A stretch of 63,893 nt of DNA, filler included, from Globobulimina sp. (lineage: Eukaryota): assembly GCA_003354225.1 (NCBI GenBank). It is 31 parts of 31 records of this genome, joined end to end, with 100 filler letters (N's around TTAATTAATTAA, not from the genome) between each part and the next. Parts side by side here need not be neighbours in the genome. Positions count along the whole stretch, not along the records: positions 49,558 to 51,520 come from PIVH01010164.1; 30 more parts are not named here. One strand, given 5' to 3'. The position numbers were made by a program, and so were the translations under genes. Shown piece by piece: positions 7 through 57,707 of the stretch. Each line of letters begins with the position of its first letter. The stretch's first letter is position 1. The notes under the pieces are model-generated. The model did no database searches, was not told where the DNA came from, and was given only the letters and a program-made list of their open reading frames with translations.

Positions 7-990
7 ATGGATCTAACCAACAAAGTAGTAGTTGTTAAAGGTGCCAATACAGGAATTGGTAAACCGACTGCTAAAACATTATTGTCCCACGGGGCCACTG
101 TGATAATGGCCTGTCTAAACCAGCAGAAAGCACTCAAAGCAAAGAAGGACATCATCGATGACATATTATCAGCTGGAAATTATAAAACTGACAGACAAAC
201 ATTGCAGCACAACTTAGATATTATATCGTTGGATTTGGCATCATCGCAATCAATCAATCATTTTGTGACAGAGTTTAAAAACAAATACAACACATTGCAT
301 TATTTGATATTAAATGCCGGACTGAATGCTGCGGAGTATAAAAAAACCACAGATGGCATTGAGTTAGATTTTGGAGTCAATCATATTGGACATTTTTATT
401 TAACCCAATTATTAACGGATTTGTTGGCCAAAACCGCATCTAAAATGAAGGCAGTTTCTGCCGTTACAGATAGGAAAATATCGAGAGTCATCGTGGTGGC
501 GTCATGGGCTCATCAATGGGGTTGGTATGGATTGAACGATGTTTTTCAAAACGAGACATTTATTCAAAATGAAAATGAATGGAATGGTATGCGAACATAT
601 GGCTTTTCCAAAGCGTGCAACATATTATTTGCAAACGAATATAATGAACGACATAGAAACGAAAACATTTATGCTGTTTCTATTCATCCTGGAAGTATTC
701 CAACAGAATTGGTGCGAGATCAACCTTTTGTGGTTCGATTTCTTTATAATAAGGTGATGGGAGCATTGTTTTTGAAGAGTATCGATGGCGGAGCGAGTAC
801 CACAATAAGAACGGTCAGTATTTCTGACCATGAATTTATTGCAAACGCTGGTGGATATTTTTCAGATTGCAATCCAGCACCAAATGATGTGCGAAGTGAC
901 TTATTTCCAGAAGGTGTAGAAAAGGATAAAATGCCTCAGAAACTGTTGTGGGAATTGACAAAAAAGATGATTGCTAAATATTATTTGTAA
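7..990 (+). CDS. Short-chain dehydrogenase/reductase, RDH12/WWOX-like
   Basis: GANTGIG Rossmann motif, LILNAG, FGVNHIGHF, catalytic YGFSK, HPG. Confidence 0.93.
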   Translation: MDLTNKVVVVKGANTGIGKPTAKTLLSHGATVIMACLNQQKALKAKKDIIDDILSAGNYKTDRQTLQHNLDIISLDLASSQSINHFVTEFKNKYNTLHYLILNAGLNAAEYKKTTDGIELDFGVNHIGHFYLTQLLTDLLAKTASKMKAVSAVTDRKISRVIVVASWAHQWGWYGLNDVFQNETFIQNENEWNGMRTYGFSKACNILFANEYNERHRNENIYAVSIHPGSIPTELVRDQPFVVRFLYNKVMGALFLKSIDGGASTTIRTVSISDHEFIANAGGYFSDCNPAPNDVRSDLFPEGVEKDKMPQKLLWELTKKMIAKYYL

Positions 991-35111: not shown

Positions 35112-36680
35112 CCATCCGCAGTATGTTATTATAACTTATCATACGGTGAGATCGCAGACCACCAAGCTCGAAACAAAGAGGGCTTATTCGCCAACAACGG
35201 CGCCTTCGCAGTGGATACCGGCAAGTTCACCGGTCGCAGCGCATTGGATAAATACATCGTAGATCAGGAACCATCCACAGACAAAGTCTGGTGGGGAGAC
35301 ATCAACCGCAAAATGGACATATCCGTCTATAACAAATTGAAGGACCAAGTCATGTTTTATTACAAGAACAAAGTGGACCAAGTCTACGTATTGGACGCCT
35401 TCTGCGGCGCTTCCAAAACCGCAGCAAAAAAAGTGCGCTTCATAACGGAGAAGGCGTGGCATCACCACTTTGTTAAAAACATGTTCATCGAGGCCAAACC
35501 AGACGAATTGAAGGGCTTTGTACCCGATTTCACGGTGATTAATTGCTACGGCCTCACGGATGACAAGTGGCAAAAACATGGGCTGCACTCTGACGTCTAT
35601 GTCTCTTTCAGCATTGAGGAGCGCACCGCCATTATAGGCGGTGCCTGGTACGGCGGCGAGATGAAAAAAGGCATTTTTAGCATGATGCATTACTGGCTGC
35701 CACAGCAACACATTCTATCCATGCACTGTTCTGCCAATGTGGGCGATGCCGACGACGACGTTTGTTTATTTTTTGGCTTATCCGGGACTGGAAAAACTAC
35801 GCTATCCACGGACCCCTATCGCCGTTTGATCGGCGATGACGAGCATGGCTGGGACAATGACGGCGTGTTCAATTTCGAAGGTGGCTGCTACGCGAAAACG
35901 GCAAAGTTGTCTACGGAAACCGAGCCGGAAATCTATAATGCGGTGAGAAACAATGCGTTGTTGGAAAACGTGTGGATTGACCCCAATACGCGGGAAGTGG
36001 ACTATTTTAATATGTCGTTGACAGAGAATGGAAGGGTCTCATATCCGATTGAACATATTGAGAACCGCGAGGCGACTCTGTCCGGCGGACATCCATCGTA
36101 TATAATATTTTTGTGCTGCGACGCATTTGGGACATTGCCGCCCGTTGCACGGCTGTCTCCGGGCCAGGCAATGTATCATTTTATCTCTGGTTATACCGCC
36201 AAAGTCGCCGGGACGGAGCGCGGCATTAAGGAACCGACGGCCACGTTTAGTCCGTGTTATGGTGCTGCGTTTTTGACGTTGCATCCGATGGAATATGCGA
36301 GTTTGTTTAAGGAGAAGTTGGAGCAACATGAGGTGGACTGTTATTTGGTGAACACGGGATGGAGCGGCGGCGCCTACGGCATGGAGGGCGGCGAGAGAAT
36401 GAGTATAAAGACTACGCGGTCGTGTATTGACGCTATATTTTCGGGCGAGATCAAGAAGACACAGTTTAGGACGGATAAGGTGTTTGGCTTCGATGTGCCG
36501 GTGGCGTTGGCCGGTGTGGATGCCAATATTTTGGATGCTAGGAACACGTGGAAGGATAAGGATATGTACGATTTTAAATATCATGAGTTGGGCGAGATGT
36601 TTGCGAGGAATATTGATATGTATGCGGATCCGGAGAAATATAAAGAATTTGGACCAACAAGTAAAGGAATACAATTTTAG
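35112..36680 (+). CDS. pckA: Phosphoenolpyruvate carboxykinase (ATP), 5'-truncated
   Basis: TGKFTGRS, YGGEMKKGIFS, MHCSAN, GLSGTGKTTLS, LIGDDEHGW, FNFEGGCYAK. Confidence 0.98.
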   Translation, partial: PSAVCYYNLSYGEIADHQARNKEGLFANNGAFAVDTGKFTGRSALDKYIVDQEPSTDKVWWGDINRKMDISVYNKLKDQVMFYYKNKVDQVYVLDAFCGASKTAAKKVRFITEKAWHHHFVKNMFIEAKPDELKGFVPDFTVINCYGLTDDKWQKHGLHSDVYVSFSIEERTAIIGGAWYGGEMKKGIFSMMHYWLPQQHILSMHCSANVGDADDDVCLFFGLSGTGKTTLSTDPYRRLIGDDEHGWDNDGVFNFEGGCYAKTAKLSTETEPEIYNAVRNNALLENVWIDPNTREVDYFNMSLTENGRVSYPIEHIENREATLSGGHPSYIIFLCCDAFGTLPPVARLSPGQAMYHFISGYTAKVAGTERGIKEPTATFSPCYGAAFLTLHPMEYASLFKEKLEQHEVDCYLVNTGWSGGAYGMEGGERMSIKTTRSCIDAIFSGEIKKTQFRTDKVFGFDVPVALAGVDANILDARNTWKDKDMYDFKYHELGEMFARNIDMYADPEKYKEFGPTSKGIQF

Positions 36681-36906
36681 TTTTTTTGTGTATGTTATTT
36701 TTTGTGATTGAATTTTTTTTTGGTGATTGTAATTTTTTGTGTTTGTTATTTTGCGTTTGTCCTGTATTAGTTTAATAATCTACTCCTAATTACTAAATAG
36801 TAAATATCTAATTCTTCAAAACACTTAAACAGATAAACACTTAAACACTCATCGAAAAATAGGCAAAGCATTGCTATCATCATAGCAGTAAGACTAAAAG
36901 CGCAAC

Positions 36907-37051
36907 ATTGTGGCGTCGCACTTTTTCAATTTTCATGGTGAATTTCCATTTGAAATGATTCGACAATGAAATCATTTAAATAAAGTTCAAAGGTGTCACA
37001 ATTTAATACCATGCAATTGACATTTTTAAACAAAAACGCGACAGCCACAAT
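36907..37051. repeat. About 145-bp imperfect inverted repeat
   Basis: ATTGTGGCGTCGC / GCGACAGCCACAAT outer arms; TCAATTTTCATGGT / ACCATGCAATTGA; AAATGATT / AATCATTT inner arms. Confidence 0.7.
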
Positions 37052-37175
37052 CAATATTCTCATTCTTTTTACACCNNNNNNNNNNNNNNNNNNNNNNNNN
37101 NNNNNNNNNNNNNNNNNNNTTAATTAATTAANNNNNNNNNNNNNNNNNNNNNNNNNNNNNNNNNNNNNNNNNNNN

Positions 37176-49557: not shown

Positions 49558-51520
49558 TTTGGTTCAAAGCTCTGTAGTCGACACAGAACCTTAGCGTATT
49601 GTCTTTCTTCTGGACCAGAACAACTGGACTCGCCCATGGACTGATTGATGGTCGGATGACCTTCTGTGCGAGCATTTTGTCAATGTGTTGTTTCAGAACT
49701 TCGCGCTGTGCAAATGGTACACGATAAGGTTTTTGATGTAATGGACCTTGACCTTGTGTATCAATTCGATGTTGAAGTACAGTACAGTGTCCAAGGTCTT
49801 TGTCATCTTTGGCAAAAACGGTATGATTCTGTATGAGCAGGTCACAAATCTCCTTCTTTTCTTGTTCAGAAAGATCTGAGTTTGTAAGGTCTATTTGTTT
49901 TATTAATTGTTCTTTGATGGAATCATCAGCTGTTGAATCTTCACTATAATTATGATCTTTTCTCTGATTTTTGGTCCATTTTGATGCAAGATTTCGGATT
50001 GGACATTTTCTTCTCCGTTTGGATTGTCTTCTAATCACATGACTATTTTGTTCAATAGTGGTATGGAAGATGTTGATCATTCTTTGAAATCCTTCAGCCA
50101 TTCCCAAGCGAGTTCCTCTAAACAGTCTTATTGGGGCTCTACCTGGGTTTAGTAGTTTAATTCGGCCATAGGATTGTCCGGCAGGAAGTATTATTTTGGC
50201 TGCAAACAATTGATATCTTTGTGACAGTGTCGGGTTTGGTTCAAAGATCAAATCTGGGTGTTCTGGATTTCCTTTAATTTGAGCTGACAAAATAACTTCT
50301 GATCTTGCTGGAATTATTTCATCATTGGCCAAAGTAACTTCCCACTTTTCATGAGAAGGTTGGGTGTTTCTGTTGTACAAGCCAATTGGTATTGCTTTAC
50401 CTTTTATGAACAATTTTTGTCGTGGAAAGTCAAAAGAAAATCGTCCAATCTGTTGTAGGAAGTCCAAACCAATCAGACATGCAAATGGTAATGTTGGCGT
50501 GACTAGAACTTGTTGTAATCGTGTATATGGTCCTACTCGGATTTCCAATGTGGTCATTCCAATAATGTTCACTTTTTCTCCATTAACTGAATTAGCTTTC
50601 TCATGTGATGGTAAAATTACCGGAACTGGATTCATCCTTTGTATTAAAGAATATCGTACCAATGTTGGTGTAGATCCTGTATCCAGCAGTACAACACGGG
50701 GAAGCCCTTGTATATGGGCCAGAATTGTTAGGTGCTCCATGGTAGCTTTTGATGACATTTCGTAATTGACATTACAAGTCAATTGAGGGTAAACACTCTG
50801 TGGATGGTATGTCACAATCTGACTGGCTGTGTTGGCTTGTATTGATTGTAATTCATCACGTGTGAGATATAGATTTCGTCTAATCCTATTCTGTGTCTGT
50901 CTGCGACTAGAAAGAGTTGGTCTGGGTGGTATTCTTGGAAGTTCTGTTCCATCTTCATCAACAACAGTAACCTGTGATCTTCTGTCCTCTTGCTCTGAAG
51001 CAATTCTCAACATTGGTGTTGGTTGACTTATGATTACTGTTGGTTCAATGGTAGGCAATGCTGGGCTTGGTGGATAAAACCGTTCATGCATTTGATGTCC
51101 CCAATTCCAGACCCCAGCTGCCATGTCAGGTACACTTGTTGCAAAGGCCTCGCGTTTTTGGACCGGGCAGCAATGTACTATGAACATTTGTCCATATACA
51201 TATACCACAGCAATGAAGATTATAATTCCTTTGATTCCAACTGGATAACCTGAGAGGAAACTGAACATGCCCTGGTCCACTATGTTTGTTGCTGTCTGTC
51301 TTGCTGCTTGACTTGGAGGTCCATTCAGTGATAATCCAAGTTCTTGGAGTACTTGTTGTTGTTGGTTAGCACTAGTCAATATGTCATTCAGGCTAATATG
51401 AGAGTCAAGTTCATTCCATCCATACATATGAATCTGTCTGAAAACTGTGTTTTCCTTTGGCATCTGTAAGGTCACGTTCCAGTGAAACATGTTTAATGGA
51501 ATTGCACTGCGAATTGGTTG
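49558..51520 (-). mobile_element. Ty3/gypsy LTR retrotransposon polyprotein fragment: env-like TM region, aspartic protease, degenerate dUTPase-like linker, start of RT
   Basis: Single frame open across the contig; LLDTGS (D at 50681-50683), LIGLDFL, KPYRVP, SPWASPVVLVQKKDNTLRFCVDYRALN. Confidence 0.93.
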
Positions 51521-53683: not shown

Positions 53684-55645
53684 TGTCAGCATAACGGCTG
53701 ATGGTGATTATACACCTTTGTTGTATGAATTTGGATATAGAATGGCTGATGATGATGGCGATGAAATTAAATATTATTTACACGATGGATTATTATCTGA
53801 ATCAGTATTTTCTGACTTCTATTTACCGATTGGTGACTTTATTTTATTTGCACACGCATACGATTCTCAATCGGCAGTGGTTTCAGATGCAATGGAATGT
53901 TCACGTACTTTGACTTCGTATTCAGAATGTGACGATTTTACAGATTTATTGTTTCTGGACAATGCTCAATCTGAATCAGCGAAAAAACGGCATATTTTGC
54001 AACAAAGTATGATTTATTTACAATACTTAGATAAATATGACGGTGGCAATGAAGAATGCGTTGAACAACAATTAGTACATATTTTAGATATTGTGTATCA
54101 ATATTTTGTCGGTGAAAATGATGATATTTGTAATCAACATAAAATCATTGAATTAACACAAACAATGACGAGTTTATTATCATTAATGAACCAACAAAAT
54201 ATGGCAATGTATGCAGATGAGAGAGTATATGGTGAGATTACAGAGTTATTATTTATTGTATTAGATCCATGTTTATATATTATGGATGAGATTGAAAATC
54301 TGAAAGATTTAGTTATATCTCAAAACTCCGTCATTGCACAGATAGCAATCATTAAATATAATGATAATGATATCTCCACATATTTATCACCAATCATATC
54401 CGAGATCGCATGTCAAACGTTATTATTTCGTATGATATCATCAATTATTCCGATGATAAAATATTTAAACGACATAGAAATATATGAATTATTATCCTCG
54501 TCGATATACATTGCACAAATGGTTGACATTTCAGTCTCAATATCCGGGGAGAATAATCTTCGACAATTTGATTTATTTTCGATATATTCAGCCAGAATCT
54601 CGGGCAAAAGTATTAATATCGATGTGCAAAACATAAATGTTTATATTCCAACTGATGTCACAATGGTCGCTAATGATAATAACTCACCATTTGAAGGAAC
54701 GGATGTATTGATAACAGCACGTGATACATTAGCAAATAATGTGGTGGTAAATGCTGATAATGACGAGTTTGAAGGGCGAGTCTCTGGCAAATCAATATCA
54801 ATTACAGTATTATCAGAGACTGTGGATATATCAGATTTGCCATCAAATATTGAATTTACATTTGAATGTGAGGAGGAGGATGAAGACGTTTGTCAGTCAA
54901 TGCAATGTGTTTGGCATAATGAAGAGGACGATATTTGGTATAAGGATGGCTGTGATACAATTATTAATAGGGATGGTAATGACATCCAATGTTCATGCAA
55001 ACATTTAACAACCTTTGCTATCATTTATAATATGCAAGAAACAGAAACAAACACAAATGTATTTATTGACAATGAATCGTCACAAATTGATATATCTATG
55101 CATTGGATCTTAGCAGCAATGTTTTTAATGATAACATGTTATGTTATGTATCAAATCTATCCCTTTTTTGTCAAAAAAAGTCAATTAAATTGGAAACACA
55201 GAGCCGTTTTTGTGATGATGTTGGTTGGAATTACTGCGTTTTTATATTTTTTAATTTGTATGGAATATTTATTTTTTGCAGCAATGTCCATTCAAGTAAT
55301 GTCATTATTGTTATTATTGCCACATATTACATATCTATTGATATTTTCAGCATTATTTTTTACGTTGTTCACATTGGCACATTCATTTAATACAAATATT
55401 GAGTACATTCGTGATAAATTACGACATTATTTAATTGGGTTAAATGTTATTGTTATTTTAATGTTATTTATTTATTATATATTAATAGTTTGTAATGCGA
55501 ATGAAATCGTATTCAAAATAGCATCCTTTGCATGGTCCGGATTAACGACCGTCATAACAGTCATTATTACAATTTATGCCATAATACTCCGTGATATTCG
55601 TGCTTTGGAGCAGCAAATGGCAGATCAGCCATGCAGAAGATTTAC
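53684..55645 (+). CDS. REJ-like / GAIN-GPS / multi-TM receptor (adhesion-GPCR or polycystin-1-like), both ends truncated
   Basis: GPS: CVWHNEEDDIWYKDGC...IQCSCKHLTTFA; five TM helices follow; FYLPIGDFILFAHAYD resembles the REJ end. Confidence 0.85.
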
Positions 55646-55745: not shown

Positions 55746-57707
55746 TTGTCGACAAAAACGGTTAACGATTTTTTAGTGTATAACCAATTTAAGACACATT
55801 GAGAATCGGTCCATAGAGTTGTTTGAGCAATTGGAAGATGAAGTTGAGATGTGACAAATTTGAGAGCACGTACACCAATTAAGACAGCTAACAATTCTAG
55901 CCGAGGAATGCTTAATCCAATCTTAGGGGCTAAGCGACATTTAGAAAATATTAAATTACAAGTTGAACGATCCTTGGATACAACTTGTAAATAAATACAT
56001 GTAGCATAACTAATTGCTGATGCGTCACAAAAGCAGAGTAAATTGAAATTAGTTTCTGTTACGGTAGACTCTGCAATAAATCGTGGTATAGCATACTCAG
56101 CAATATTATTTAAATTTGTAGCAATTTCACACCACTTTGAAGTTAAAGTATTAGAAAGTACAGTATCCCATTCAAGTTTTTGTGACCATAAGGTTCGTAT
56201 GAAACCTTTGGCTTGTAAGGTAACCGGTGTAAAGAAACCTAACGGATCATAAATAGAGGCATGTGCTCGCATAACCTCTCTTTTTGTATTAGCATTAGAG
56301 AACTTTTGACTGTCGTAACCAGGAATATACATACAGTCTTTTTTAGTATCCCATTTTATACCCAGTACTTTAAATATAGTCCCATCAGCTCGATGAACTG
56401 CGGGAATTTTTTCCAAAAATTCCTCAGAATTTGAGCTCCATTCGCGCAAATTCAGAGAAACACTTGTAAATATTTTCTGTGCCTGCGTGTATAGTTCGAA
56501 TGCGGCTTCAATAGTTGCCGTACCAGTAACCAAATTGTCTACATAAATGTCGTTTTTTAGTAATAACGATATTTCGGTGCTATACTGTTCCAATAAATGA
56601 ATTATAACAGCCGCAAGTTTGAACGGGCTTGAAATAACACCGAAAGGTACTCGACAAAATCGATAAACTTGTAAATTGCCATCGATTTTGTGTAATTTAG
56701 CGTTAGCAAACCAGAAAAAGCGTATAACATCTCTGTCAGGTATTTGTAATCCAATATTTAGAAAGGCTTTTTCTATGTCTGCTAATATAGCTACTTTATG
56801 TAACCGAAAACGAAGTAATAAACCACATAAATCATTTAGTAAATTTGGCCCTTTATAGAGGCACTCATTTAGAGATTTATTACCCTTTTTAGTTTTAGCC
56901 GAAGCATCATACACAATACGTACCTTAGTAGTTGTTTTAGTTGGGGTTACCACTGCATGATGTGGAATATAATGCTTTATTGGACCTTCTTCTGTTGTTG
57001 AAGTCACTTTTTCAATTATTCCCAATTGTTCTTGTTCTTGAATAATTGCATCATATTTCTCCAGTATTTGGGGGTTGGGAAATAGTCGATTTTTGGCATT
57101 CGACTTGAAGCGACTTAGTGCGAGGCCTTTATTTTCGGGTAAATCAGGTTCCTTTTCTTTCCAAGGCCATTTTACCGAATATCGATTATCTTCAATTTTG
57201 ACCGTGTCATAAAAATTATCTAAAGCGATTTTATCATCCGGAAGTTTTGGGGGGTCGGTTATACCGATATTTTCGAGTTCCCAAAAGGTTTCGGTATCAG
57301 GTATGACCGGAAGTGAAAGTTCTGGAGCGGTCAAATAACTGTTTGGTAACGGCGAAGTGTTACCGTAAGTAACGCAAAAAAAATTGGTTTCGAACCCCTT
57401 ATAATTTTGGTCAGTTTCAATTTCGCCTGAAAGATACCAGCCAAATGTTGATTTTTGTAAAAATAAGTTTTCCGTTAATGCGATTTGTTCTAAAAGTAAA
57501 AATTTTAAGTAATAATTATTTCCTAATAGAAAATCAATATCGACATGTTCGATAGCCTCTGGACATGGATCTGCTAAAGTATTTCGTTCAACAGGTATAG
57601 GTACCGTAAGTGGTATTCGTGTCATTTGACATGTTGAAATATTAGGTACAATATACACTTTAATTGGCACTTTTGGGCCGTTTTTAGGAAAAACTATCAT
57701 TTTCGCA
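55746..57707 (-). mobile_element. BEL/Pao LTR retrotransposon pol fragment (RT and RNase H region)
   Basis: YIPHHAV, KVRIVYDAS, SLNECLYKGP, ADIEKAFL, RVPFGVISSPF, YVDN, YDPLG, FCDAS, SIPRLEL, WTDS. Confidence 0.97.

Follow-up and report, generated by a model that had tools for sequence, protein, structure and literature searches.

Retroviruses are thought to have arisen through the capture of viral fusion genes by LTR retrotransposons. Tas of Ascaris, a BEL/Pao element, carries a gB-like Env, and env lies after pol in BEL/Pao elements of the Tas and Anakin types. In nematode endogenous retroviruses, a continuous gag-env-pro-pol-in ORF is reportedly described in the abstract of Sacco et al. 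The order GAG-ENV-POL, with an HSV/gB-type ENV, is known from Ty3/gypsy 'errantiviruses' of Nematoda, Bryozoa, and Platyhelminthes (Chary and Hayashi, eLife 2026, PMC13524379); for the nematodes, the accessible text of that paper refers to Sacco et al. 2022 (J Gen Virol 103:1739), and it handles ENV and POL as separate ORFs and describes a search that tolerated gaps of up to 2000 nt. Mosquito 'Anakin' elements are described as BEL/Pao elements with a chuvirus-like G (Dezordi et al. 2020, PMC7642597), and infectious cell-to-cell transfer has been documented for gypsy and ZAM (PMC13524379; PMC10541861).

The window analyzed here (the whole 63,893-nucleotide stretch of DNA) consists of 31 contigs of 1962-1966 bases each with N/TTAATTAATTAA spacers between them, and the finding concerns exactly one contig, at 49558-51520. 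This contig is very probably an internal fragment of a Ty3/gypsy-type (Metaviridae-like) GAG-ENV-POL endogenous retrovirus with a class III, gB-like Env and with env in frame with pol. As far as the accessible text of PMC13524379 goes, its elements resemble the contig in their Ty3/gypsy pol, their class III gB-fold Env, the position of env upstream of pol, and a gag further upstream, which in our case is seen in relatives of the contig. The original prediction had presented the env-PR-RT order as novel, and this part of it has to be given up: GAG-ENV-POL Ty3/gypsy elements with a gB-type Env are already in print, so the architecture itself is not new. If the ORF of Sacco et al. 2022 is as reported, the Env-Pol fusion itself is also known. 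The words 'polyprotein', 'in-frame', 'single ORF', 'dUTPase', 'late domain', and 'ESCRT' are absent from the accessible text of PMC13524379; that text therefore appears not to discuss the joining of Env to the protease in one frame, the motifs of the tail, or the domain with the dUTPase fold. A literature search for fused gag-env-pro-pol returned nothing beyond PMC13524379, whose element tables could show such a fusion, and its preprint. What may be new is the dUTPase-fold domain, together with the late-domain-like motifs of the Env-to-protease tail and, in one relative, a 2A-like peptide.

Tas and Anakin are like the contig in being LTR retroelements with a gB/G-type class III envelope gene, but their pol is of the BEL/Pao type, whereas that of the contig is Ty3-like. 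A BEL/Pao identity was considered and rejected: no BEL/Pao family was found in the contig protein (P0001) or in the relatives scanned, and the closest solved structure is that of Ty3. Relatives carry RT_RNaseH_2 and Integrase_H2C2 without Peptidase_A17, and elsewhere in the window a genuine BEL/Pao pol was readily recognized. Drosophila gypsy and the insect errantiviruses share the combination of a Ty3/gypsy pol with an envelope gene; however, they have an Env of the F type (class I-like, like that of baculovirus F), which lies after pol and forms a separate ORF. The G proteins of Monjiviricetes (PF24664; Nyamiviridae, Chuviridae, and rhabdo-like viruses) are the nearest sequence family and provide the nearest viral models of the relatives, but they are encoded by stand-alone genes of negative-strand RNA viruses, whereas the env of the contig continues into a protease within a reverse-transcribing element. 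Herpesvirus gB matches in fold and in the order of ectodomain, membrane-proximal part, membrane helix, and cytoplasmic domain; unlike the present protein, it works with gH/gL and has no enzyme fused to it.

On the minus strand, frame 1 of the contig has no stop in 654 codons, while the other five frames have 27-44 stops each; from base composition, the probability of no stop in 654 codons is about 4e-19. The stop-free frame expected across the whole contig was thus found, as was every string quoted in its support (WNVT, the hydrophobic stretch, CC, and LLDTGS). Judged from its sequence, the frame at 49559..51520 reads as an internal piece of an env-pro-pol polyprotein, with the domain order Env ectodomain end, transmembrane helix, tail, retropepsin, dUTPase-fold domain, and start of a Ty3-like RT. 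The Env end thus precedes protease-RT in one continuous frame, as had been proposed. Gag, fusion loops, the RT catalytic core, RNase H, integrase, and LTRs are all absent from the contig, which contains no noncoding sequence. Its features are as follows.

49559..51520, minus strand: single open frame of 654 codons (0 stops; P0003 BLASTP segment; cut at both contig ends)
51236..51520, minus strand: C-terminal end of the Env ectodomain, residues 1-95 (38 relatives, best E 1.1e-21)
51470..51478, minus strand: N-glycosylation sequon NVT, residues 15-17 (motif read; WNVT is residues 14-17)
51170..51235, minus strand: transmembrane helix, residues 96-117 (Kyte-Doolittle peak; model helix 96-117)
51164..51175, minus strand: HCCP, residues 116-119, at the cytoplasmic end of the membrane helix (CC is residues 117-118)
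50780..51169, minus strand: cytoplasmic tail/linker, residues 118-247 (composition; pLDDT <50 over most of 156-243)
50780-50791, minus strand: YPQL, residues 244-247, late-domain-like, ending the tail (motif read)
50372..50779, minus strand: retropepsin-type aspartic protease, residues 248-383 (Pfam and model; LLDTGS at 277-282)
50024..50362, minus strand: beta-barrel domain with a predicted dUTPase fold, residues 387-499, between protease and RT (VIA-align)
49775..50023, minus strand: basic, partly disordered linker and helices, residues 500-582 (model)
49559..49774, minus strand: N-terminal part of a Ty3/gypsy-type RT, residues 583-654 (PDB matches; the contig end cuts before the catalytic motifs)

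Residues 1-95 comprise a helical arm followed by a membrane-proximal G.F.FL.G stretch, and the predicted structure places helices at 35-60 and 69-90. With residues 1-265 as the query, phmmer found 38 relatives (E 1.1e-21 to 5.7e-4), 13 of them at E<=1e-10. As the contig's Env piece has neither a Pfam match (E up to 10) nor a direct gB sequence match, its assignment to Env is transitive, via relatives of 16-45% identity. One of these, P0017, provides the connection to gB: its residues 419-535, the homologous part, match the contig at 51520-51164 by tblastn (E 7.7e-16) and fall within the range aligned to HSV-1 gB at about 665-795 (rows 6bm8_A and 9e3i_A). By this range, residues 1-95 would correspond to gB domain V and the membrane-proximal region. 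Residues G84, F88, G91, F102, L278, D280, and G282 are invariant in the 13 sequences of alignment A2. An N-x-S/T occurs at the position of the contig's sequon in P0002, P0003, P0006, P0009, P0013, P0015, and P0016 in the same alignment, which fits a luminal or extracellular side for the Env end. The hydrophobic stretch that follows, IKGIIIFIAVVYVYGQMFIV at 96-115, contains the starts of the top Kyte-Doolittle 19-residue windows (at 96-100), and together with the model helix it marks a single C-terminal membrane anchor after the ectodomain. Of the 42 other proteins scanned, 19 have HCCP at the corresponding position, exactly or with one residue changed, and alignment A3 shows no variation at H116, C117, or P119. 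We regard HCCP as a putative acylation site.

The fold of the ectodomain was examined on the predicted model of P0017 (pLDDT 75.5), which includes the part of Env that lies beyond the contig. In a Foldseek search with this model, gB was found throughout the matches listed (5v2s_A, E 8.5e-19), with low TM-scores of 0.35-0.42. VIA-align gave gB Z scores of 14.2-14.8 over about 400 aligned residues at 12-15% identity, followed by Chandipura G (7.7), the Bourbon and Thogoto Gp (5.8 and 5.7), and GP64 (5.1). The nearest viral models were those of a nyamivirus (Nyavirus) G (E 2.6e-26) and then of rhabdo-like, orino-related, and chu-like G proteins. Just upstream of the matched stretch, PF24664 (Monjiviricetes_fusion) was recognized in 17/38 relatives (15/23 and 2/15) at E<=0.01; six of the 38 exceed its gathering cut-off of 27 bits, and the remaining 11 of the 17 fall short of it. 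The contig fragment, which covers just the last part of this 653-position profile, had no match to it at E up to 10. A language-model lead from the Atlas gave two PF24664 clusters (0.90 and 0.89) and a gB fragment (0.88). In sequence, the Env therefore appears closest to the G proteins of Monjiviricetes (nyami- and chuvirus-like). When the family sequence profile was compared with the PDB, there was no gB among the 60 matches listed, all of which were proteases or Ty3 Gag-Pol. The gB resemblance claimed for the segment is one of fold, seen on the P0017 model, and the sequence profile did not show it among the matches listed. Taken together, these comparisons support the reading of the pre-protease segment of the contig as the C-terminal end of a class III, gB-fold fusion glycoprotein.

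Downstream of the membrane helix, the tail has two short helices first and then a disordered part rich in P, R, T, Q, and S; at 9.6% P and 8.9% R, it is Pro/Arg-rich as predicted. The protease and gypsy RT expected next are likewise present. The protease matches gag-asp_proteas PF13975 at E 4.7e-7 (30.7 bits; cut-off 28.2) and PF13650 at 26.4 bits (cut-off 24.3), and its model, with pLDDT >90, aligns with the retropepsin domain of Ddi1 (VIA-align Z 13.5) and with the EIAV protease (Z 12.2). The RT start matches Ty3 RT (4ol8_A, E 6.4e-10), Ty3 Gag-Pol (7q5b_A, E 2.6e-9), and foamy virus PR-RT (7o0h_A, E 6.7e-8), and in P0009 and P0016 it lines up with the first part of RVT_1. In the linker ahead of the RT, the model has a helix at 479-500, pLDDT <50 over 485-530, and helices at 530-564; spumavirus PR-RT chains align from residue 544.

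Between the protease and this linker, residues 387-499 are predicted to have a dUTPase fold. Compared as part of the longer modelled chain, the region gave VIA-align Z scores of 10.3 with human dUTPase 24ok (103 residues aligned, rmsd 4.6) and 10.2 with 3h6x, then 9.1 with EIAV dUTPase and 8.8 with M-PMV dUTPase; below the top two, the scores with many dUTPases and dCTP deaminases went from 9.2 down to 8.1. Pfam gave no match, dUTPase included, for residues 371-522 at E up to 10, and inspection of 387-499 by eye did not pick out the canonical dUTPase catalytic motifs. The region also aligns in P0003, P0009, P0029, and P0030.

Elements with env between gag and pol and in frame with pol indicate that capture can put a fusogen inside a polyprotein, and this placement poses the question of how a soluble replication complex is obtained from a membrane-threaded precursor. 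We propose that one polyprotein would be translated and would pass a single time through the ER membrane. An internal signal sequence, ahead of which one relative has a 2A-like (skipping) peptide, would start the Env ectodomain on its way across, and the membrane helix would halt translocation, so that the tail and the protease-dUTPase-like-RT(-RNase H-integrase) part would be cytoplasmic and tethered to Env. The retropepsin would dimerize and release Pol from the tail by cleavage, the late-domain-like tail motifs just ahead of the protease may bring in the budding machinery of the host, and Env would then permit cell-to-cell transfer. A further proposal, which we make tentatively and consider rather unlikely, is that in this lineage Pol enters the particle attached to Env on its cytoplasmic side and not as Gag-Pol: a single Gag-Env-Pol polyprotein would cross the ER membrane with protease-RT-integrase carried on the Env tail, and the pre-protease stretch would act as a p6-like late domain that drives budding. 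If true, this would be a mode of particle assembly in which Env, not Gag, brings both the enzymes and the budding signal. The features of the junction to which these considerations point are the late-domain-like tail motifs, the conserved HCCP, and the 2A-like peptide of the one relative.

Env and Pol may instead share a frame in the DNA without functioning as a fusion: a spliced or subgenomic message would yield Env, or some recoding event would end it, and Pol would be produced separately, so that Pol would never be tethered to the membrane. We consider this possible, if on the doubtful side. Retroviruses normally make Env from a spliced message, and ENV and POL are taken as separate ORFs in the accessible text of PMC13524379. 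However, the frame is open from the membrane helix to the protease both in the contig and in the 11 relatives with a Pfam protease, and the spacing from HCCP to D[TS]G is conserved, at 138-238 residues in the seven relatives with both motifs and 164 in the contig. Nor does the tail look like junk: PPxY, P[ST]AP, or YPxL occurs in 7/13 aligned tails, which are related sequences and not independent events, whereas the shuffle mean is 1.8 and 0/2000 shuffles reach 7.

It is improbable that the contig is a dead or domesticated remnant, either a piece left over from an old insertion or a host gene that arose from such an insertion. The 654 stop-free codons extend over five domains, and the active-site DTG and all seven invariant columns of alignment A2 are kept. 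What favors a remnant is that only 1963 bases are known, with no LTR, gag, or integrase among them, that tblastn found no second copy of the element in the window, and that decayed copies of this kind exist. One such copy is L001, a metagenome locus from the family-alignment search, which has a decayed gag-env-PR-RT order in its DNA. No LTR-sized direct repeat was found in its 5723 bases, and the protease alone was recognized by Pfam on its ORF pieces.

Still less probable is a free (exogenous or episomal) reverse-transcribing virus in the sample. An integrated element is expected to have relatives on longer contigs, such as the 31 kb contig of P0029, and decayed copies such as L001, and the depth of the element's own contigs in run X1 is low, at 2-6. 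The contig does lack host flank, and its G+C of 0.40 is above the 0.30-0.36 of most neighboring contigs; contigs of more than one composition class seem to be present in the assembly. The listing of runs with this sequence gave one such run, X1, and no RNA run. Five Logan contigs of run X1 cover 49603-50964 and 51295-51520 with one base different; X1 contigs over 50965-51294 (the membrane helix and part of the tail) were absent, as were any from X2 and X3, which is a blank and not evidence.

That the assembler joined a glycoprotein gene to a retrotransposon pol, as a short contig in a low-depth assembly might suggest, is scarcely credible: one BLASTP segment joins P0003, a protein of different origin, to P0001 over all parts (93-689 of P0003 with 9-643 of P0001, E 3e-79), so the contig is not chimeric, and P0009, P0016, and P0029 are also collinear with it.

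The endogenous retrovirus reading also agrees with the recurrence of the env-protease-RT order in independent relatives, P0003 among them, which the original prediction had named as a check. In P0016, one tblastn segment (147-489) runs through the tail into the protease, and RVT_1, RT_RNaseH_2, Integrase_H2C2, and rve follow in that order. A Pfam protease lies downstream of env in 11/38 relatives and in seven of the eight that have at least 250 residues past the membrane helix; P0033 has 340 such residues and no protease. P0029 combines Retrotrans_gag (118-212), a CCHC (376-392), env, and protease in one protein. The claim that no Gag zinc knuckle precedes the protease is correct for the contig, but this kind of element does have a gag, which lies upstream of env in P0029 and L001; the missing gag says nothing, because the contig begins inside env.

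The contig and its 38 metagenomic relatives enlarge a recently described group. The family-alignment search found no related loci in genome contigs or viral contigs, and tblastn against the phage collection gave no match. A word-index search with residues 1-260 against longer proteins gave 0/567 candidates; with the whole of P0001 there were four matches, all to pol parts, and P0017 matched itself alone. The sole labelled relative carries a bacterial MAG protein label.

The window's 63,893 bases comprise 31 contigs (1962-1966 bases each, size-sorted), joined by N runs around TTAATTAATTAA, and one of them, 49558-51520, coincides exactly with the finding. Because the window consists of separate contigs, the flanking pieces, which encode the C-terminal end of a flippase and, at the opposite flank, an unknown membrane protein, are unrelated and give it no context. 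A single open frame of 654 codons (product P0001) spans the whole contig on the minus strand, with 0 stop codons versus 27-44 in each of the five other frames; the chance of such a stop-free run is ~4e-19, as computed from base composition. This bears out the original prediction of a stop-free frame over the whole contig, and the strings quoted there (WNVT, a hydrophobic stretch, CC, a Pro/Arg-rich tail and LLDTGS) are all found in P0001, whose features, partly taken from a structure model (42-row alignment, mean pLDDT 68.3), are as follows.

Features of P0001 (residue numbers of P0001)
14-17, minus strand: WNVT, located in the sequence
15-17, minus strand: NVT sequon, with N-x-S/T at the same alignment place in seven relatives
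35-60 and 69-90, minus strand: helices in the model
96-115, minus strand: hydrophobic stretch, top hydropathy window
96-117, minus strand: membrane helix in the model
117-118, minus strand: CC, located in the sequence
Reaching to 148, minus strand: two short helices in the model
Most of 156-243, minus strand: disorder in the model
248-383, minus strand: retropepsin, confident in the model
277-282, minus strand: LLDTGS, located in the sequence
393-477, minus strand: beta domain, confident in the model
Last 72 residues, minus strand: start of RT, from the model and a match to the Ty3 reverse transcriptase N-terminus

The sequon and its partners in the seven relatives fit a luminal position. Directly after the membrane helix stands HCCP, found there identically or with one residue changed in 19 of 42 other proteins; in viral glycoproteins, cysteines at such a position are commonly acylated. 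The tail that follows contains 9.6% proline and 8.9% arginine. Protease followed by gypsy RT, as had been predicted, was recovered by Pfam PF13975 (retropepsin; E 4.7e-7, 30.7 bits against a cut-off of 28.2) and by the match of the last 72 residues to Ty3 RT 4ol8 (E 6.4e-10), with Ty3 Gag-Pol and foamy-virus PR-RT next. Between them, the modeled beta domain (387-499) matched no family in a Pfam scan at E up to 10 and is assigned a dUTPase fold by VIA-align (human dUTPase, Z 10.3; 3h6x, 10.2; EIAV, 9.1; M-PMV, 8.8). Gypsy elements with dUTPase domains are already on record, according to literature excerpts.

The passage from Env into protease recurs outside this contig. BLASTP aligned P0001 9-643 with residues 93-689 of P0003, a relative from another source, in one segment (28% identity, E 3e-79) that spans the Env end, membrane helix, tail, protease, following domain and RT start, and a single tblastn segment in the relative P0016 likewise connects the Env end with the protease. 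Invariant columns in a 13-sequence alignment (A2) lie both in the membrane-proximal part and helix (G84, F88, G91, F102) and in the protease (L278, D280, G282). Pfam places a protease downstream of env in 11/38 relatives; in an alignment of 37 relatives (A4, P0026 left out), 8 extend at least 250 residues past the membrane helix and 7 of these have the protease, P0033 being the exception. The in-frame order of env, then protease-RT, is genuine, and in this lineage, represented by 38 mostly metagenomic relatives, the fused order is the rule. A chimeric junction between membrane helix and protease is ruled out for practical purposes by the single-segment P0003 alignment and this recurrence.

Taken alone, the N-terminal part of P0001 had no Pfam match with E allowed as high as 10. 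Residues 1-265, searched exhaustively with phmmer, returned the 38 relatives (13 at E<=1e-10; best 1.1e-21), all of which were scanned against Pfam (23 + 15). PF24664 (Monjiviricetes_fusion, "viral fusion glycoprotein") appeared in 17 of them directly upstream of the window-matching stretch, in 6 above Pfam's 27-bit cut-off and in 11 below it at E<=0.01. A protein-language-model Atlas gave PF24664 clusters at 0.90 and 0.89 and a gB fragment at 0.88, with low recognition, which is the same lead as Pfam's and only a lead.

The fold was examined in P0017 (634 residues), whose ectodomain is the most complete among the relatives (model from a 39-row alignment, mean pLDDT 75.5). Foldseek listed only herpesvirus gB among its PDB matches (best 5v2s_A, E 8.5e-19, probability 1.00), in alignments of ~600-720 columns with low TM-scores (0.35-0.42). 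VIA-align, run independently on 48,161 chains, ranked gB entries in the top six places (Z 14.2, 13.1, 12.0, 11.0, 8.8, 8.4), followed by Chandipura G (7.7), Bourbon Gp (5.8), Thogoto Gp (5.7), GP64 (5.1) and rabies G (4.8). A second comparison (Z up to 14.8) placed model residues 1-430 on HSV-1 gB 114-670, and two full-length gB chains aligned on to model residue 534 or 566 (gB 795 or 859), these ranges being first and last aligned residues only. By range, the window-aligned part of P0017 (419-535) therefore presumably falls on the gB ectodomain end, membrane-proximal part and membrane helix, going by the usual gB domain boundaries. When the comparison was made with predicted viral structures, nyamivirus G (E 2.6e-26), rhabdo-like, orino-related and chu-like G, and some entomopoxvirus proteins matched best, with gB from rank 9 on. 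The family sequence profile had no gB among the 60 PDB matches listed, which were proteases only. Thus, the predicted gB-like fusogen stands for the fold, as modeled in P0017, but not for the sequence, whose family is the G proteins of Monjiviricetes.

In the comparison of model m5ef4b4c77ea2 with viral models, uncharacterized entomopoxvirus proteins (ranks 3, 6, 39 and 47) belonged to the best matches, in the company of nyami-, chu- and rhabdo-like G; most gB entries ranked below them. Furin-like R-x-[KR]-R sites lie directly N-terminal of the long central ectodomain helix in P0006, P0017 (site at 248, model helix from 263), P0019, P0029 and P0030, a region outside the window's Env fragment; some gB proteins are cleaved at the corresponding place.

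Relatives supply the rest of the element. P0016 runs on through the protease into RT, RNase H and integrase (H2C2, rve); P0009 combines a fusion domain with protease, RT and RNase H; and P0029 (1835 residues, from a 31-kb contig) carries the following in a single protein.

Features of P0029 (residue numbers of P0029)
118-212: Retrotrans_gag
376-392: CCHC knuckle
After the knuckle, before the fusion domain: internal hydrophobic signal-like stretch
962-1072: fusion domain
1097-1241: window-matching stretch
1416-1505: protease

L001, the only related locus that turned up in DNA, has decayed but keeps the same order: a gag-like piece (E 2e-8 to P0029 Gag), Env split across three frames, protease, then RT start. 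With gag upstream of env in both, gag is not missing from this kind of element, and the contig merely starts within env; the predicted absence of a Gag zinc knuckle before the protease holds for the contig but not for the element kind. In another relative, P0026 (1968 residues), D[TS]G also stands at 487 and 675, in two additional retropepsin-like domains (Pfam 661-746), and a very long stretch rich in Pro, Arg and Thr is inserted; these lie upstream of, or within, the Env region, and the usual D[TS]G (1925) comes after the membrane helix. In its source record, the eukaryotic-type Env-protease fragment P0015 is assigned to a Pseudomonadota metagenome-assembled genome (as a hypothetical protein), probably as a binning contaminant.

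One frame, the domain order and its recurrence are observed directly. In the most likely mechanism, a polyprotein would be made, and an internal signal sequence would direct its Env part into the ER; the membrane helix would halt transfer, so that tail and Pol stay cytoplasmic and membrane-tethered, and the retropepsin would next release Pol. Tail motifs may attract budding factors, and Env would carry out transfer between cells. The main rival is that Env and Pol are expressed separately though the frame is shared. Late-domain-like motifs (PPxY, P[ST]AP or YPx(1-3)L) occur in 7 of the 13 tails that were aligned over the stretch separating membrane helix from protease, including YPQL at 244-247 of P0001; shuffled tails gave a mean of 1.8 and 0/2000 shuffles reached 7, although the rows are related and not seven independent events. 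In P0006, alone among the three relatives that include this junction, DVESNPGP (197-207), which fits the 2A ribosome-skipping motif, stands directly upstream of the Env signal sequence; downstream of its protease lies an unassigned region with no RT.

Sacco et al. 2022 reportedly described a continuous gag-env-pro-pol-in ORF with an Env akin to nyami- and chuvirus G, which, if so, would match the contig's architecture. Excerpts of Chary and Hayashi (eLife 2026, PMC13524379) describe metazoan Ty3/gypsy elements whose ENV is of F type or of HSV/gB type, those of Nematoda, Bryozoa and Platyhelminthes having HSV/gB-type ENV only, arranged GAG-ENV-POL; they credit the nematode elements to Sacco et al. 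2022 and also note chuvirus-like gB-fold glycoproteins adjoining gypsy POL genes. "Polyprotein," "in-frame," "single ORF," "dUTPase," "late domain" and "ESCRT" are absent from these excerpts. Excerpts of Kojima 2025 (PMC12440569) and Dezordi 2020 give background on env capture by LTR elements. With GAG-ENV-POL and gB-type ENV in print (PMC13524379), the architecture is known already, and the original prediction had itself counted a prior description as refuting it. The feature is real and was correctly read from sequence; it adds to a group described only recently. What makes it of interest is the fine detail of how Env joins the protease, together with the 38 relatives, mostly from metagenomes, that show the fused order.

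Elsewhere in the window, contig 55746-57707 (minus strand) has an open frame from end to end (653 residues) and is a BEL/Pao pol fragment, with Pao retrotransposon peptidase PF05380 (E 2.7e-49) at residues 474-635 after 473 unassigned residues; LTR retroelements of two or more kinds are therefore present in the assembly. Contig 35112-37075 encodes an ATP-dependent PEPCK (PF01293, E 1e-205) at a G+C of 0.445, against 0.30-0.36 for most contigs. Animals generally rely on the GTP-dependent form, which may mean that more than one organism went into the assembly, or that its host is not a typical animal. This is despite the BEL/Pao elements and a GPS motif (53685-55643), both of which speak for a metazoan.
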